The notes below the pieces were generated by a model that was not told the DNA's origin, did not search any database, and saw nothing but the letters and a program-made list of their open reading frames with translations. From a phage, in sequence record PZ445530.1: DNA of 64,000 nucleotides; one strand, given 5' to 3'. Of the stretch, positions 605-63,892 are shown piece by piece (within the stretch, counting starts at the first letter, position 1; each line of letters opens with the position of its first letter). Made by a program: the position numbers and the translations under genes.

Positions 605-1387
605 GCATTAGGAGACAGCAAATTGAAATTTATCTACAAAGAACACTACCACAAAGGTGTTGTGTGGAGTCTATTTGACGGGTCTGGTGGTGCAGTCATT
701 GACTGGGCAAAAGCTGGGTACCTGTGCCTGTGCTTTAATGCAGAAGGCGCTGATCACGGCAGTTATGCAGAGGTGATCACCGATCATCCCAACATTCACT
801 ATGTGGACTATTGGATCGACCCGTGGTTCCCTCAGGAAACTTTTTGCATGTATCCGGCTCCAGATTTTATTCTTGCATTTCCTCCGTGCACGCATTTAGC
901 GGTATCAGGTGCTGCACATTTTAAGAAAAAGCTGGCTAAGGACCCCATGATCCAAATTAATGCTGTAAAGGATGCTCGGGTTGCGGAAGAGCTGGGAGAG
1001 ATTTACGATTGCCCGTGGCATGTAGAGAATCCTGTGGGTGTTATGTCCACACTGTGGCGCAAACCTGATTACCGTTTTCACCCTTCGGATTATGGCGGGT
1101 ATTTACCGGAAGATGATGTAAACCCATGGTTTCCTGAATTTATAGCTCCACGTGATGCCTATCCAAAAATAACTTGCGGCTGGATAGGTAATGGATTTAT
1201 AATCCCAGCCACAAAACCTGTCCCGCAAATAGTTGACGCGGTTAGCGGGTATTCCATGCAACACGCCAAGCTGGGTGGAAAGAGTGCAAGAACGAAGATG
1301 ATTCGAAGCCTCACACCACGTGGCTGGGCAAAAGCCGTATTCCTAGCAAACGAGCCTGTAGTAAGGAGCAGAATTAATGGGAAGTAA
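593..1387 (+). CDS. DNA cytosine-5 methyltransferase-like protein; true start probably near 623 because 593 lies inside the terminator hairpin
   Basis: motif I-like LFDGSGG, motif IV-like FPPCT (Pro-Cys), motif VI-like HVENPVGV; AGGAG SD at about 610. Confidence 0.4.
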   Translation: MGLFALGDSKLKFIYKEHYHKGVVWSLFDGSGGAVIDWAKAGYLCLCFNAEGADHGSYAEVITDHPNIHYVDYWIDPWFPQETFCMYPAPDFILAFPPCTHLAVSGAAHFKKKLAKDPMIQINAVKDARVAEELGEIYDCPWHVENPVGVMSTLWRKPDYRFHPSDYGGYLPEDDVNPWFPEFIAPRDAYPKITCGWIGNGFIIPATKPVPQIVDAVSGYSMQHAKLGGKSARTKMIRSLTPRGWAKAVFLANEPVVRSRINGK

Positions 1388-3455
1388 ATTTATGGCATCT
1401 GCATACAACCGTTTCGGTGAGCCAAACCCGAAAGCAACTAAGTATAAAAGTGGGGGAAGTGTGAAACGAGACTATCGTGATGAAAAAGAAGTTGAAACTG
1501 TAGAGACTGTTTTAGAAAATACTAAAATTGTCCCTGTCCCACAACAAAATATCGGTCTGATGGCTGCACAATATTTTGGTGTGCGATCAGCATTGTCACA
1601 AGAAGACGGTGTGACAGTCACTGCAACATATTTCCCATATTACGACCGCTACGGAAATCTGTCCGGTTTCAAAAAGCGTGACTGGACTATTCCTAAAGAA
1701 CAAAGGGGCCACTTCTCCGTTGTTGGCATCGTAAAGGCCAACTCCCAGATGTTTGGTCAAAAGCTGTGTGCATCTTCCAACAACCGTAAGCAGATTAACG
1801 TTTGTGAGGGGGAAGGTGATGTTATTGCAGCATGGCAGGCTGCATATCAGATACAAGTAAAAGGGATTCTCACCAACGCTAAAGCCCCGGCAAAGGTGAA
1901 GCAGTGGGCTAAAGAAGTCCAGGACGGGATCGATGCAGTTATCAACGGTGGTGATCTGGCAGGAAAACCATGCCTGCCTTTTGTTGGAATTAACTGTGGA
2001 TGTGCAAACGCAGTAGATACTTTTGCAAACAATGAGAAGTTTATCCGTAGCTATGGAACAGTTGTGCTGGCAATGGATAACGATGCAGCTAACGAGGTAG
2101 AGAAGCAAAAACACGTCATTAAAGGTGTTGAGGCCACGCACAATATCGCAGCATTTTTGATGGCTGATAACGTTTACCACGTAGAATACCCTGGTGAAGT
2201 AAACGACCCTGACGGTGTAAAAGATATCCGAGACATGCTGAAGGCTAAAAAGCTGGAAGATATTGTCAACATGTTCCGGCATCCTGTTAAATATGTGCCT
2301 GATGCGGTGTCGGATTTAGAAGACTTCTCTATCGAGTCTTTGCGGAAAAAGACTTCCAACGGGGTAGATATCAGCGCAGAGTTCCCAAAACTGCAAAAAA
2401 TGCTAAAAGGCTTGCACAAAGGGACACTCGTAATGCTTACAGGTCCATCAGGTGGCGGTAAAACAACCGTAGCTAAAAAACTGGAACACTGTATTGCAAG
2501 ATACCTAATGGACCCGACATGCCCGAAGGCTGATGACTATGAAGAGGATGATCGTCTATGTATGATCCATCTTGAGGAGGACCCAGAGGAAGCAATTAAC
2601 TCCTTGTATGCAAACCAGTTAGGGTTTGATGTTAAAGAGTTTGTTGAAGATCCTAGCCAGTTTTTAACTGATCAAGAACACGCAGAGATTCACCAATCAT
2701 GGGCAAAAGCTGGAAAAATCAAAGTGTTCAAACATTTCGGGTCTATTCCGGTGGATGAGTTGATTACCAAGCTTAAGCAAATGGTTTGCCTGTACCATTG
2801 CCGTTATATTGTGCTGGATCACCTGTCCATGGTAATTTCAGGGCTTAATGTTAAGGATGAGCGAAAAGAACTGGACATGGCTATGACTCAGCTGGCTGCG
2901 TTTTGTAAGCAGTTTAACGTGTTTATCTTGGTGATCGCTCACCTCAAACGTACAGAGATTGTGCCTCCTAAGGACAAGGATGGTAACCCGTTACCTTTCT
3001 GGTATCCTGTGCGAAAAGAGAATTTGCGAGGATCGGCGGGGCTTGAACAGTTGAGTTGGGTAGTCATAGGTGTCGAGGCCGAAGAAATGGTGGATCGTTC
3101 TCGTGGACGTGTCCGTCTGGTAGGTCTTAAAAACCGTCCAGCAAAAACTCTAGGTATTGCTGACACTTTGGTTATGGACCCGCACACAGGTAAGTTCCAT
3201 GATGCCAGTAATTGGTACTGGGACAAAGAAATGCAAATGTTTACAGACGGAGAAGGTGGGGAGGTTGTTTGGAGACCTCAGGCTATGTTTGAGGATCAGG
3301 AGCATGCAGTTGTAGAAACACCTATGGGCAAGGTTGTGGCTGATAAGGTTGTAACTCCTACTGTTAAGCCTGTTGACACGCAGGAAGACCTCCAGTACGA
3401 TGATCCGTCCTCTGACCATGTTCCTGGTTTTGAGGATGATGAAACACCTTTTTAA
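1377..3455 (+). CDS. bifunctional DNA primase-helicase (T7 gp4-like)
   Basis: TOPRIM-like CEGEGD; Walker A GPSGGGKTT; DnaB-like C-terminal half; acidic tail ending FEDDETPF. Confidence 0.8.
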   Translation: MGSKFMASAYNRFGEPNPKATKYKSGGSVKRDYRDEKEVETVETVLENTKIVPVPQQNIGLMAAQYFGVRSALSQEDGVTVTATYFPYYDRYGNLSGFKKRDWTIPKEQRGHFSVVGIVKANSQMFGQKLCASSNNRKQINVCEGEGDVIAAWQAAYQIQVKGILTNAKAPAKVKQWAKEVQDGIDAVINGGDLAGKPCLPFVGINCGCANAVDTFANNEKFIRSYGTVVLAMDNDAANEVEKQKHVIKGVEATHNIAAFLMADNVYHVEYPGEVNDPDGVKDIRDMLKAKKLEDIVNMFRHPVKYVPDAVSDLEDFSIESLRKKTSNGVDISAEFPKLQKMLKGLHKGTLVMLTGPSGGGKTTVAKKLEHCIARYLMDPTCPKADDYEEDDRLCMIHLEEDPEEAINSLYANQLGFDVKEFVEDPSQFLTDQEHAEIHQSWAKAGKIKVFKHFGSIPVDELITKLKQMVCLYHCRYIVLDHLSMVISGLNVKDERKELDMAMTQLAAFCKQFNVFILVIAHLKRTEIVPPKDKDGNPLPFWYPVRKENLRGSAGLEQLSWVVIGVEAEEMVDRSRGRVRLVGLKNRPAKTLGIADTLVMDPHTGKFHDASNWYWDKEMQMFTDGEGGEVVWRPQAMFEDQEHAVVETPMGKVVADKVVTPTVKPVDTQEDLQYDDPSSDHVPGFEDDETPF

Positions 3456-3513: not shown

Positions 3514-5937
3514 ATGAGCATGTGGTCGTTCGATTTTGAGTCATCCGGTTTGCTGGAAGACCCAGATCTTTATTATCACTGCGGCCTGTTTAAAGAGCTG
3601 AATAAGAACCGTTTTATGCTGTTCCTTCCTCTGAATGACCGCACACACTACTCCGAGGAGGATATAGAGAAGGCCAAGAACTTTATTCTGGCAAAGAAAA
3701 CTCTTTATAAGGATTTTGAAGTTCGCATAGCAGATTTTTCGGAGTTGGAAGGTTGGCTTACAGGAAATTCCGACTGGTCACCAACAGCTTTGAACTGCCA
3801 TAACTGCTACAGTTATGACTTTATGCTGATGGAGAGATTATCCGGTATTCATTTTGATATGTTCCGTGATCCTAAATGTATGGGGACTATCAACGACCAC
3901 CAGGTTAACCTGTTTGATACGTTGGCGATGAGCCGAATCTTGTGGCCTGATCGCCCTTTACCAAAAGGTTGTCCGGACTCCGTATTCAACCCGGTTACTA
4001 AGAAAATGCAGCCTGTTGGTCCTCACGGCCTTATGGCATGGGGCTACGCCCTTGGTAACCAGAAAGTTCAAATTGATGATTGGCGCGATCTTCCGTTGTG
4101 GAAGTATGTGGATCGTGTATTCGAGGACGTTATCATCCAGGAGCTACTCTGGAAAGAGCTGGTAGCGGAATCAAAAGGTGTATTCTACGGCAAATCTGAC
4201 ATGCAGAACTTTATGTACGATCCTGCCAAAGAGAAGCCGAAAGGGTTCAAGAAGATCACCTGGAAGAACGCATTGCGCCGGGGTATGCTGCAACACTTCC
4301 TGATGGAGCTGCAGGCCCGTCAGGGTGTGTATTTTGACATAGATGGAGCTATTGCTTTACGTGACCGTTGCGATGCGTGGATGAAAGAAATCGCTGATCG
4401 TGTTGAACCACAACTGCCTTTAAAAGAGCTGTCAATGTCTCAGCGGCCCAAGTTCCCTGAAAAGCCGTTTAACCAAGATGGGACAATCTCTAATAATGGT
4501 TGGAAATGGTTAAAAGATAAGCTTGGCTATCCTGTGGACATGAGTGCTTTAGAGTTCAAAGCCCCACCTAAGCGAGCATTTACCTCTACAGGAGATGTCA
4601 GTAAGATGGGGATAAAATGGTGTGAAGAGATGGGCTGCAAAGACCACGATAAGATGGCTGATTTCTTGAGAGGCTATATTAAGGGCACCTCCACACCACA
4701 ACCTTTACCTAAAGAGCTGATGGATCAGGCAATAAGCGATCTGCAGCAGAAGCGAATGCCTGACTGCAAGATACCTATGAAAATCAGCAATCAGGACGAT
4801 ATTAAGCGATACCTGATCAGTGCTGGTTGGCTTCCGACAATGTGGAGAACTAAGGATGTAACTAAAGACAGCAAGAAGAAAGCTTTACCTGATGCAGATG
4901 TTGATGCACGAGTATATGCATATATGGACGAGCTTTTGGAGTCAGAGTATTGTGACCTAATTATCAACTTCTGGAACAAAACTGATGCTAAGTTCCAGAC
5001 AACCGTGCACAAGTTCCGAAGCTTTCCTAACTCCGAAAGGATTAAAAAGGAAGTATTCGGGAAAATACGTAGAAAAGCTAGGGCACTTATTACTTCTCCG
5101 CAACTGAAAGATACGTTTGGACACCTGTGTCCGAATCTTGAAAAATTGAACGGAGAGATGGCTAAAGATATCGTCTTATGGTTATCATTGCGAAACCGCA
5201 GATCGGTACTTGATCCAATCAAGGAGGATAAGGTTGACACTGGTCTTCTTAATCACCCACGTTTGAAGATTGACCATAAGCTTCCTGCTAAAAGCTCTGG
5301 ATTAACAAACACTTCCAGACAGAAACACAGTATTTGTGCAAACATGCCTAAACCCTCTCCTAAAGTGGTTATGGGTAAAGAGATGCGTAGCTTGTGGGGT
5401 GTTCCTCCAGGATACTTTGAGATCGGTATCGACGGGTCCAACTTAGAGCAGCTTATCGGGGCTTGGGGTGCCTTTGAGTTCGACAACGGCCTGTATTACG
5501 ATGTTGTAAGTAACGGAGACGCACACCAAAACAATGCTGAGGCATATACAAAAGTAGCAGGCAGAGAGGTGTCCCGTAACGACGGTAAACCTATCACGTA
5601 TGGGGTTATGTACGGGGCACAAAAAGATAAAGTTGCAGATATGCTGGACATCTCTCCAGAGTTGGGACAAAGGGTAATCGATGCGCTTTGGGATGCCAAC
5701 CCTGGTCTTAAGGGCCGTAAAGAGGATCTGGAGAAATTCTGGGAAGCAACGGGTAAGAAGTTTATCTACTCTTTTGATGGTCATGCCATCTGGACCCGAT
5801 CTAAACACTCTTTACTTAATGCATACCAACAGAATGGTGGTGCATCGCTGTGTGACTTGGTTGGGATACTTATGCACCACCAAATGGTGAAGCGTGGGTG
5901 GTACGATGAAGGTGTTCGTCGTATTATCTATTACCAT
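3514..5937 (+). CDS. DNA polymerase family A, exon 1 (3'-5' exo domain plus polymerase motifs through motif B)
   Basis: exo motif FDFESSGL; motif B KPITYGVMYGAQ; frame ends ...IIYYH immediately before stop, where motif C HDE is expected. Confidence 0.8.
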
Positions 5938-6779
5938 AAATAACATTGTGGCTTCGTGCAGTGATGCACGTCGAAAACCTCTTTAATTGACGGGAAGGCT
6001 AAGTTGACTTTTACACCTAAACATGGTAAAAGCTCAATATGCTAATCCGCAGCGAAGACTAAAGGGGTGTAGTTAAAATGGCTAGATCAGTTGAGTATCA
6101 CGGATATACCGTGTTTGATGATGGAACAATACCTTTATCGAAACGTGATCATACAACAATGTTTTGTTTTGATAATGGTCGAGGTTACCTTTGCGTAACC
6201 ATGTTCATCGAGGGGAAGCAGTGCACAAAAGGTGTCCACCACTTGGTTGCTGAATGCTTTGTATCAAACCCTGATCCTGAAAGGCTCACATGGGTGAACC
6301 ATAAGGACGGAAACAAATACAACAATGCATACTGGAACCTTGAATGGACCACCCCTGGTGGAAATATCAAACACGCTTATGATAATGACCTCAGAGTAAG
6401 GCCAGTCGGTGAGTATAATGCCAACGCTGTACTGACCGAGGATGAGGTAACGGAGATTTGCGAACTGTTACAAAGTGGTTTACGACAATGCGAGATTAGG
6501 GATCTTGGGTATCCTTATGAGACGGTCAGAGCCATAAAGCAAAGAAGACAGTGGAAACATATCTCTAAAAACTACACCTGGTAGTAACGTTCAGAGACTA
6601 TCGAAAGCATAGCGCCAACATAAATTGGTGCGAAGAAGCGAGTAGAGTAGACCAGCAAGTGCGGTCGAAATGGGAGGTGCCTTGGTAACAAGGTAGTGAG
6701 ATAGTCCGATCCATACAGGAAACTGTATGGCTGTGCACGTAATGGTGCGGGGTAGCTTAACGACCTACCTGAACTATTG
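5938..6779 (+). mobile_element. group I self-splicing intron interrupting the DNA polymerase gene
   Basis: conserved core elements P (AATTGACGGGAAGG ~5985), Q (AATCCGCAGC ~6044), R (GTTCAGAGACTA ~6589), S (GAGATAGTCC ~6698); exon 1 ends in T, intron ends in G; exon frames differ. Confidence 0.7.
6078..6584 (+). CDS. intron-encoded HNH homing endonuclease
   Basis: NHKDGNKYNNAYWNLEW HNH motif; ORF nested between intron Q and R elements; own SD. Confidence 0.75.
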   Translation: MARSVEYHGYTVFDDGTIPLSKRDHTTMFCFDNGRGYLCVTMFIEGKQCTKGVHHLVAECFVSNPDPERLTWVNHKDGNKYNNAYWNLEWTTPGGNIKHAYDNDLRVRPVGEYNANAVLTEDEVTEICELLQSGLRQCEIRDLGYPYETVRAIKQRRQWKHISKNYTW

Positions 6780-7133
6780 GATGAGTACCAACTTCAAGTC
6801 CCTGACACACCGAAGTATAAGACTGTGTACACCTTCGACACAATTGAAGAATTGGAAGCATTTAAGGCAGAGCAGGAGGCCAAACTTCATGTGTTCGACG
6901 GTCATAAGTACAAAAAGGCACGCAAGGATGAAAACGGAAACGAAGTGGTTGACAGAGACGGAAACACGGTGTACGATCCTATCTTGAACGATGACGGAAA
7001 GCTTGAACTTATCTGGAGTCCTGTGGGCGAAATGGTGGTACATTGCTTCTGGCAAGCTTCTAAAATGATGGGAGTCCCGTTCCAGATCACAGGTGAATAC
7101 TTGTGTGGTCGTAATTGGGGTGATTGTCACTAA
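6780..7133 (+). CDS. DNA polymerase family A, exon 2 (C-terminal part incl. motif C)
   Basis: splicing joins ...YYH to DEYQ... giving HDE; C-terminus ...GRNWGDCH resembles T7 pol ...GPNWAICH. Confidence 0.65.
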   Translation, partial: DEYQLQVPDTPKYKTVYTFDTIEELEAFKAEQEAKLHVFDGHKYKKARKDENGNEVVDRDGNTVYDPILNDDGKLELIWSPVGEMVVHCFWQASKMMGVPFQITGEYLCGRNWGDCH

Positions 7134-7182
7134 TGTAAACTATCAACACATGGAAGTGTTGTTGAGCAAAGAGGAGACTTTT

Positions 7183-7467
7183 ATGGTAGTAGAACCAACA
7201 AAAACATTTACATCTATGACTATCCCTGTTATTATGCAGGTGGAGTGTGTTCAGGTATCTCAAGTGTGGCCTGGTACCAAAATCCCAACAGGGCCTGATT
7301 TCTTTCAGGTTGGGAAAGTGTACAATGTCTGGAAGGCACCAGATTGTTACCCTTTCATCAAAGATGACCGTGGAATGTTGTGGTATCTTGGAAATGATTT
7401 GACACTGCACCTTGGGAATGTTATTATTGCAGTATTCAGACTTAACAAGAAGGAGACCGATCAATGA
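7183..7467 (+). CDS. hypothetical protein
   Basis: ATG preceded by AAAGAGGAG SD; inside longer track ORF 7093..7467. Confidence 0.45.
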   Translation: MVVEPTKTFTSMTIPVIMQVECVQVSQVWPGTKIPTGPDFFQVGKVYNVWKAPDCYPFIKDDRGMLWYLGNDLTLHLGNVIIAVFRLNKKETDQ

Positions 7468-63726: not shown

Positions 63727-63801
63727 GCCCTGTTAGCTTAGTGGATAAAGCAGCGGCCTTCTAAGCCGTTGACACTGGTTCGAGTCCAGTACGGGGTGCC
63801 A
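63727..63801 (+). tRNA. tRNA-Arg (anticodon TCT), CCA encoded
   Basis: cloverleaf folded by hand: 7-bp acceptor, GCTT/AAGC D-stem, anticodon loop CTTCTAA, T-arm ACTGG-TTCGAGT-CCAGT. Confidence 0.75.
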
Positions 63802-63805
63802 AATT

Positions 63806-63892
63806 GGGGAGTTATCCCGTAGAGGTAGCGGTGTAGACTGTAAATCTATTGTCATTACGACTCGGGTGGTTCGACTCCACCACTTCCCACCA
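63806..63892 (+). tRNA. tRNA-Tyr (anticodon GTA), long variable arm, CCA encoded
   Basis: anticodon stem-loop GTAGA-CTGTAAA-TCTAT, T-arm GGTGG-TTCGACT-CCACC; close to E. coli tRNA-Tyr through anticodon and variable arms. Confidence 0.75.

Follow-up and report, generated by a model that had tools for sequence, protein, structure and literature searches.

In the rV5-like coliphage (Vequintavirus) analyzed here, an 842-nt self-splicing group I intron with a homing-endonuclease gene inside it very probably interrupts the DNA polymerase gene, precisely at the catalytic His-Asp-Glu motif. The intron occupies positions 5938..6779 of the + strand of the 64,000-nucleotide stretch under consideration (hereafter the window), the strand on which all the features described below also lie, and shows an IA2-type architecture: its ends are fixed by empty-site alleles of related phages, its core is matched by the Rfam model RF00028 and its helices show covariation. 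It is an ordinary phage group I intron that is already annotated in near-identical phages, and its insertion site has been published.

The polymerase ORF (3514..5943) ends in ...RRIIYYHK*, i.e. with IIYYH-K-stop at the very place where the HDE of motif C is expected, as the initial annotation had pointed out. Its first 808 codons, ending in ...IIYYH, constitute exon 1 of a family-A DNA polymerase (3514..5937), as delineated by the ORF itself, Pfam and alignment with the T7 enzyme; in the unspliced reading these are followed by AAA TAA (K, stop) at 5938-5943. A primase-helicase gene (1377-3455) precedes this ORF. Exon 2 (6780..7133), defined by the frame starting at 6780 and by the T7 alignment, comprises 117 codons plus the stop at 7131-7133 and reads DEYQLQ...NWGDCH* in a frame different from that of exon 1, which bears out the earlier recognition of an out-of-frame downstream ORF running from DEYQ to NWGDCH. 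Joining of the two exons gives a 925-aa protein with the sequence ...IIYYH|DEYQ..., thereby restoring the YYHDEYQ foreseen in the initial annotation, and this predicted protein aligns with the T7 DNA polymerase chains (PDB: 6n7w, 2ajq) straight across the junction (iiyyHDEyql versus mawvHDEiqv). Coverage of the Pfam DNA_pol_A profile likewise extends from positions 137-261 with exon 1 alone to 137-348 with the joined protein (E-value 9.2e-8; 31.8 bits, below the cut-off of 34.3). Thus, the alignment through the junction and the extension of the profile match together place the break after the His of motif C and before its two carboxylates.

The boundaries of the insert follow from relatives in which the site is unoccupied. 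Empty-site alleles, e.g. those of YN3, EdH4, Murica and others, read ...TATTACCAT|GA(C/T)GA..., and therefore the insert corresponds exactly to 5938-6779, with a shift of one base in either direction failing to reproduce the empty sequence. This confirms the 842-nt insert originally proposed, and also the proposal that the exon ends in U and the intron in G: T5937 is the last base of the exon and G6779 that of the intron, the latter being the terminal guanosine (omega-G) of the 3' splice site (6779), which is a G in 17/17 homologues. Close relatives show four allele states at this locus: the empty site (YN3, EdH4, Murica and others); an ORF-less insert of 276 nt (rV5, navn and PDX); an ORF-less insert of 328/329 nt (JEP1, with 328 nt, and JLBYU08); and an insert of 842/843 nt with an ORF. 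Presence and absence of the intron are patchy among genomes that are >90% identical. Bases 5400-7300 of the window show 98.3% identity to Escherichia phage AlexBoehm and >95% identity to the other listed phages, at full coverage. No promoter-like or terminator-like signals above background were found near the intron.

The initial annotation had suggested RF00028 as a check on the region, and the outcome was mixed. In a scan of the whole window against Rfam at the gathering threshold, a tRNA alone was reported and the intron was not. With permissive filters the model aligned over its full length (1-253) with 5928..6729, yielding significant E-values of 2.5e-8 (region) and 1.8e-6 (entire 64-kb window), and no other such signal was present in the window; its score of 39.2 bits stayed under the curated cut-off of 50. 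The lack of any covariance-model match, named in the initial annotation as a ground for refutation, is therefore not the case here. The alignment places a 510-nt insertion in P6, and the ORF most likely accounts for the sub-threshold score. Six homologues that occupy this site and lack the ORF exceed the cut-off, at 64.7-91.2 bits (18-1-2: 91.2; K412: 77.3; JEP1: 73.7; JLBYU08: 72.5; KP12: 69.8; rV5: 64.7). JEP1 is an ORF-less twin of the intron in the window, with a core identity of 303/325 (119/126 + 184/199).

For the analysis of covariation we aligned 17 distinct introns found at the CCAU|...G|GAUGA junction, after excision of their ORFs and with 10 exon bases kept on each side. They come from Vequintavirus, Avunavirus, Seunavirus and Certrevirus (Vequintavirinae), some members without an assigned genus and two Vibrio phages, and the mean column identity of the alignment is 69%. 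The structure, written from the sequence of the window, contains P1, P2, P3, P4, P5, P6, P7 (pseudoknotted with P3), P7.2, P8, P9, P9.1 and P9.2, amounting to 63 pairs; the outer pair of P3, formed by the window type only, was left out of the tested structure. Standard pairs form in 97.3% of the cells (63 pairs in 17 introns) versus 33-41% when the 3' partner is slid by 1-3 columns, and 30 of the 63 pairs have changed on both sides versus 1-8 in the slid versions. In 500 shuffles, neither the pairing, nor the number of both-sided changes, nor the covariation score was ever as high as in the observed alignment; this control overstates the significance because the 17 introns are related, a weakness from which the slide control is free. 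Two apparent departures from the structure arise from the alignment itself. The unpaired cells of phiTE/CB7 in helices 4 and 5 are an artefact of ORF excision, as their Q element (AAUCAGCAG) sits in the first codons of the ORF, and a P4-P6 domain without Q was thereby ruled out for these phages. In SSE121/W70, MAFFT aligns P4 in a bulged register, and direct reading of the sequence shows that, when unbulged, UGCUGG fully pairs with UCAGCA.

Compensated pairs are present in each of P3, P7, P7.2, P8, P9, P9.1 and P9.2, and P2 occurs in six mutually compensated versions across the homologues. An unconstrained energy fold of 5928-6789 also recovers P1, P2, P8 and P9, together with the P6 stem that closes the loop containing the ORF. 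The four conserved elements P, Q, R and S occur in the order claimed in the initial annotation, starting at 5985, 6044, 6589 and 6698, with the HNH ORF (6078-6584) indeed placed between Q and R.

At the 5' end, the P1 hairpin (5934..5951) is formed by the exonic CCAU and the intronic AA (5934-5939) pairing with UUGUGG (5946-5951), which is part of the guide sequence CAUUGUGG (5944-5951); U5937, the base just before the 5' splice site, takes part in the U5937.G5948 wobble. P1 is recovered in the unconstrained fold and is invariant in 17/17 introns. Directly 5' of the P1 guide, CAUU (5944-5947) can pair with GAUG of exon 2 (6780-6783) to give P10, with four base pairs including one G.U; across the set all four pairs are possible in 15/17 introns (with G.U replacing G-C in 18-1-2) and three in the Vibrio introns K412 and 10AMN. 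P1 and P10, being invariant, have no covariation support of their own. The P2 hairpin (CGUGCA-GUGA-UGCACG; 5955..5970) shows changes on both sides in 6/6 pairs and is paired in 100% of the cells, as is P3, whose 5' strand CCUCUU (5978..5983) has GGGAGG (6672-6677) as its partner, with 3/6 pairs compensatory.

The P element AAUUGACGGGAAGG (5985..5998), identified by the RF00028 alignment and the fold, includes the 5' strand of P4 (UG at 5988-5989, a bulged A5990 and CGGG at 5991-5994) and the start of P5 at 5997, which has an extension at 6000-6040. The Q element AAUCCGCAGC (6044..6053), supported by the RF00028 alignment and covariation, supplies the 3' strand of P4 (6046-6051), and P6 is formed by GCG (6052-6054) and CGU (6588-6590). 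On the other side of the ORF, the R element GUUCAGAGACUA (6589..6600) and the S element GAGAUAGUCCGA (6698..6709), both likewise backed by the RF00028 alignment and covariation, contain the strands of P7 (GACUA at 6596-6600 with UAGUC at 6702-6706), which is 100% paired and has one compensatory pair. The segment 6601..6666 encompasses the P7.1 region (6601-6646), for which energy folding predicts a pairing that includes the hairpin GCGCCAA/UUGGUGC, the G-U-A linker (6647-6649), which is invariant in the 17-intron alignment, and P7.2 (GACC at 6650-6653 with GGUC at 6663-6666), which has 3/4 compensatory pairs. The P8 hairpin (UGCCUUG-GUAA-CAAGGUA; 6678..6695) has 5/6 compensatory pairs; P9 (6711-6730, with a GAAA loop), P9.1 (6734-6749) and P9.2 (6751-6769), together spanning 6711..6769, have 5, 1 and 3 compensatory pairs respectively and are paired in 100% of the cells. 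The IA2 introns are characterized by two additional helices in the region from P7 to P3', namely P7.1 and P7.2, with G-U-A connecting them (PMC3428280), and the intron in the window has this arrangement, with its P7.1 coming from folding only.

Combining the structure computed here with the standard group I pathway, from which the steps are taken, splicing would proceed as follows: the guide sequence would pair with the CCAU at the end of exon 1 to form P1, presenting U5937 in a U.G wobble; an external guanosine held in the P7 pocket would attack after U5937; G6779 would then replace the external guanosine in the pocket; and P10 (GAUG with CAUU) would align exon 2 for ligation. The ligated exons would read ...TATTACCAT|GATGAGTAC..., i.e. 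with CAU|GAU at the junction, and would encode a single 925-aa polymerase. The unspliced RNA, on the other hand, would yield a protein that ends in ...YYHK-stop and lacks the carboxylates of motif C.

The exon codons bordering the site show a pattern related to these pairings. All intron-bearing alleles read CAT|GAT, and the nine empty alleles in the annotated phage collection, a phylogenetically clustered sample, comprise five with CAT|GAC, three with CAC|GAT and a single one, Murica, with CAT|GAT. Of the two bases that vary among the empty alleles, one is the U involved in the P1 wobble and the other is the U opposite A in P10; GAC, found in most empty alleles, would break P10. This is the pattern that a splicing requirement would give, possibly in addition to co-conversion or target-site immunity. 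In exon 2, the first 12 bases of most empty Vequintavirus alleles also carry four synonymous changes (GACGAATATCAG versus GATGAGTACCAA), whereas Murica has an empty site with flanking codons of the intron type (GATGAGTACCAA). The comparison is confined to alleles of the phage collection, since the scan of viral contigs for empty junctions forced CCAT in its pattern; several of the matches that it returned (L034, L036, L037 and L039-L042) are unrelated chance matches. Searching the viral contigs with the 5' splice-site motif yielded no more than 7 loci, the annotated phage collection being far richer.

The ORF within the intron (6078..6584), situated in the terminal loop of P6a, encodes a predicted 168-aa HNH homing endonuclease. 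It matches PHROG 59 (HNH endonuclease; E-value 6.5e-38), and its sole solved relative in the PDB is 1u3e (E-value 4.4e-6), the structure of I-HmuI, a nicking enzyme encoded in the polymerase intron of SPO1. The HNH cores align (HHLVA...NHKDGNKYNN...NLEW versus HRLVA...DHKDGNKDNN...NLRW in 1u3e), including the His/Asn residues; the match to Pfam HNH_3 (17.7 bits, E-value 0.0027) falls below the cut-off of 24.8. The ORF is 100% identical to that of AlexBoehm, 95.8-97% identical to those in the other listed phages and 50-71% identical to those in distant hosts of the homologous intron. Most likely, as judged from its relatives, the 168-aa protein would nick or cut the intron-less polymerase alleles of co-infecting relatives, and recombinational repair of the nicked or cut allele would copy the intron in (homing); the patchy distribution of the intron and the blocks of synonymous changes beside its site are indirect evidence of this.

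Beyond the core P6 pairs, both the minimum free energy and centroid folds predict an extended P6/P6a stem, in which the 5' strand ACUA...GGGGUGUAGU (6058..6073) pairs with ACUACACCUG..UAGU (6571-6585), i.e. the last codons and the stop of the ORF (which ends at 6584), with a predicted duplex energy of -19.4 kcal/mol. The Shine-Dalgarno-like AAGGGG of the endonuclease ORF (6062-6067) lies within this 5' strand. In Av-05, whose ORF is 71% identical, the stem is retained via changes on both strands, including synonymous codon changes, and in the ORF-less twins JEP1 and JLBYU08 the hairpin CAUCC-GAGA-GGAUG stands in for the ORF. Sequestration of the ribosome-binding site is a known device of intronic and free-standing endonuclease genes, for which a review cites the work on I-TevI and mobE (PMC3073962). 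By analogy, we infer that the P6a stem operates in this manner here: with the ribosome-binding region paired to the 3' end of its own ORF, translation of the endonuclease from the full-length precursor should be held down.

An unlikely alternative, though one that deserves some weight, is that the intron splices as described and its endonuclease is no longer active, in which case it would be a vertically inherited passenger and its patchiness would reflect loss rather than gain. The ORF-less versions are indeed common (the 276-nt form of rV5, the 328-nt form of JEP1, KP12, 18-1-2 and K412), the empty site of Murica with GATGAGTACCAA is what a precise loss would leave, and the sub-threshold HNH_3 score points in the same direction. 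Against this, the ORF is intact and conserved, both in AlexBoehm (100%) and in the distant hosts (50-71%), the His and Asn of the HNH core align with those of 1u3e, and the block of four synonymous differences in most empty alleles fits co-conversion or target-site immunity.

A polymerase made of two polypeptides, with the insert unspliced and a product of exon 1 ending in ...YYHK assembling into an active enzyme with one that starts near DEYQ, has a precedent in the NrdA gene of Aeh1, which is split by the endonuclease gene mobE, as noted in the paper on phage CB7 (PMC7344957). The same paper mentions one HNH insert of CB7 that failed to splice and lies in another gene (PMC7344957); many GenBank records give two separate polymerase CDSs; and possible start codons are present, namely a TTG (6777-6779) in frame directly before GAT in the window and an ATG formed by the last three intron bases in Mangalyan and JLBYU08. 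However, that TTG is the only candidate start, and direct reading of the sequence upstream of it reveals nothing resembling a Shine-Dalgarno sequence. The break separates the His of the catalytic triad from its Asp, and there is no reason for a ribozyme core with 30 compensated pairs to be conserved if it is unused. Further, the flanking codons CAU|GAU are held only in the intron-bearing alleles, and the homologous CB7 intron does splice. The Aeh1 nrdA/mobE type is distinguished by start signals of its own for the downstream part and by the lack of a ribozyme, neither of which is seen here. Thus, a two-subunit polymerase is very unlikely, given the cut inside the triad, the TTG devoid of a ribosome-binding site and the compensated ribozyme core. 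An intein or other in-frame protein-level element, such as the intein that the relatives Mangalyan and JEP1 carry elsewhere in the polymerase gene, is excluded by the frame and the stop codon, since the 842 nt are not divisible by three, a stop lies two codons into the insert and exon 2 is in another frame; the ORF also shows no match to the Hint domain in Pfam.

The group I intron had been recognized to varying degrees in relatives of this phage. In the AlexBoehm record (MZ501048) the polymerase CDS is annotated as a join of two pieces that enclose the endonuclease, and according to the BASEL paper the boundaries of introns were identified (PMC8594841). The announcement of the V5-like phage LL12 describes a DNA polymerase gene 'disrupted by predicted intron sequences' (PMC6658697), and the introns treated in the rV5 genome paper are those of the terminase only (PMC3606486). 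In Pectobacterium phage CB7, RT-PCR demonstrated splicing of both HNH-containing polymerase introns in infected cells (PMC7344957); of these, the intron with the HNH gene CB7_50 is the homologue at the site under consideration. No analysis of secondary structure or covariation for the Vequintavirinae polymerase-intron lineage was found among the papers searched. The introns of AlexBoehm, LL12 and CB7/phiTE share with that of the window the site (CCAU|...G|GAUGA), a homologous core and the same P1 and guide, and AlexBoehm also has the HNH ORF in P6a, 100% identical to that of the window. Those of CB7/phiTE differ in having a shorter, 127-aa HNH protein, whose first codons overlap Q, and a long P5 extension, whereas rV5 and LL12 have the ORF-less 276-nt form with different P5, P6a, P7.1 and P8 arms.

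The main value of these observations lies in annotation: in many of the GenBank entries for rV5-like phages the polymerase is given as two or three separate proteins or as a 'hypothetical protein', and the exact splice junction allows one correct 925-aa product to be annotated. The locus is also a well-sampled case of an intron inside a catalytic motif, for which phages that are nearly identical may have the empty, the ORF-less or the ORF-bearing allele. This makes it useful for studies of homing and co-conversion; it leaves the current understanding unchanged.

The Klenow chains cover residues 324-928 of Pol I, and mapping onto them gives Pro674 for the DP|N junction and His881 for HDE. The T7-like phages phiI and W31 contain self-splicing IA2 introns with an HNH ORF in P6a at 'site 881' in E. 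coli numbering (PMC3428280, describing Bonocora and Shub 2004); given the mapping, site 881 is therefore His881|Asp882, the same H|DE junction as in the window, and the Pro|Asn junction is 'site 674' (PMC3428280). Compared by that description, the phiI/W31 introns resemble the one in the window in the family-A polymerase host gene, the His881|Asp882 site, the IA2 architecture with P7.1/P7.2 and G-U-A, and the HNH ORF in P6a, whereas they differ in their podovirus hosts and T7-type polymerase. The introns of SPO1/SP82/Bastille and Pf-WMP3 (with I-HmuI, I-HmuII, I-BasI and I-PfoP3I) are likewise group I introns in family-A polymerase genes with HNH (nicking) enzymes, and also have a stop codon right after the 5' splice site; however, they are inserted at Pro674|Asn675, in the fingers, and the SPO1 ORF is located in P8 rather than P6a.

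These parallels raise the idea, though on balance a doubtful one, that every intron found at the His|Asp junction of motif C belongs to a single mobile lineage, which would have spread across widely divergent family-A polymerases. Its members could include the introns of the Vequintavirinae genera, those of K412 and 10AMN (both Vibrio myophages) and those known from the literature in the T7-like phiI/W31. Were this the case, the lineage would have swapped its cargo between an HNH ORF in P6a, a short HNH ORF overlapping Q, a LAGLIDADG-like ORF in P7.1 and none; the fixed CAU|GAU would be a readable signature of co-adaptation between intron and exon; and the family would offer a natural series for the cycle of endonuclease invasion and loss. 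As to the cargo itself, the HNH genes of the window, Av-05, SSE121, W70 and CR9 are related to each other (50-78% mutual identity); a related HNH gene in the Pectobacterium podophage PP90 was set aside, as it lies in the portal gene and not in the polymerase gene. PVP-SE1 instead has an unrelated 197-aa ORF with LAGLIDADG-like motifs, located in the P7.1 region.

The intron that lies between the His and Asp codons of the polymerase HDE motif has homologues in related phages that carry a different cargo or none at all. In the homologous intron of PVP-SE1 (L009:10997-11915), the cargo is an ORF of 197 aa that shows LAGLIDADG-like motifs (ITLGDGWL and ILWMDDGS) and is placed in the P7.1 region, 3' of the R element, rather than in P6a. 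In the Vibrio phages K412 (L019:1501-1754) and 10AMN (L020), the homologue is compact and devoid of an ORF (253/254 nt), and it is inserted between SYH and DEF of a far more diverged polymerase; in K412 an HNH gene is located outside the intron, approximately 240 nt downstream of its end. In the group formed by phiTE, SSE121, W70 and KP12 (L005, L006, L007 and L008), an ATG internal to P9, near the intron's 3' end, shares the frame of exon 2; hence, the annotated 'DNA polymerase' fragment of this group starts at MATRYGVGEINDLVKLL, directly followed by DEYQ. Two extra bases in P9.1 put the equivalent P9 ATG of the window (6727) out of frame.

Murica (L025) displays intron-type flanking codons (GATGAGTACCAA) around an empty site. 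In JLBYU08 (L017), listed under the same species heading, the intron lacks an ORF and its flanks (GATGAATATCAG) are mostly of the empty type. The flanks of these two phages resemble what precise intron loss and short co-conversion tracts would leave behind.

The polymerase gene of several relatives is interrupted elsewhere too. An additional insert with its own HNH gene is found upstream in phiTE (L005:2756-3468), as well as in SSE121, KP12, CB7 and 18-1-2, leaving the polymerase of each in three pieces; its counterpart is absent from the window. Further, exon 1 of Mangalyan and JEP1 contains a 323-aa in-frame insert (L003:1505-2500 in Mangalyan), and, judging from the length of its CDS, NHEP1 probably has the same one. 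This insert, which begins with CYSGDTQILT, ends in VCGN immediately before C and gives a weak Hint_2 match (E 5.7e-5), is an intein placed between NGDAH and Q. The window is free of this intein, the corresponding empty site being 5526-5554.

Over this region, coliphage rV5 shares 96-100% identity with sixteen GenBank records (MG0656xx) that are titled 'Campylobacter phage' and give Campylobacter jejuni as host, which reflects either a wrong host attribution or an unexpected host range. Two adjoining tRNA genes, tRNA-Arg(TCT) and tRNA-Tyr(GTA), are situated at the end of the window (63727-63892).
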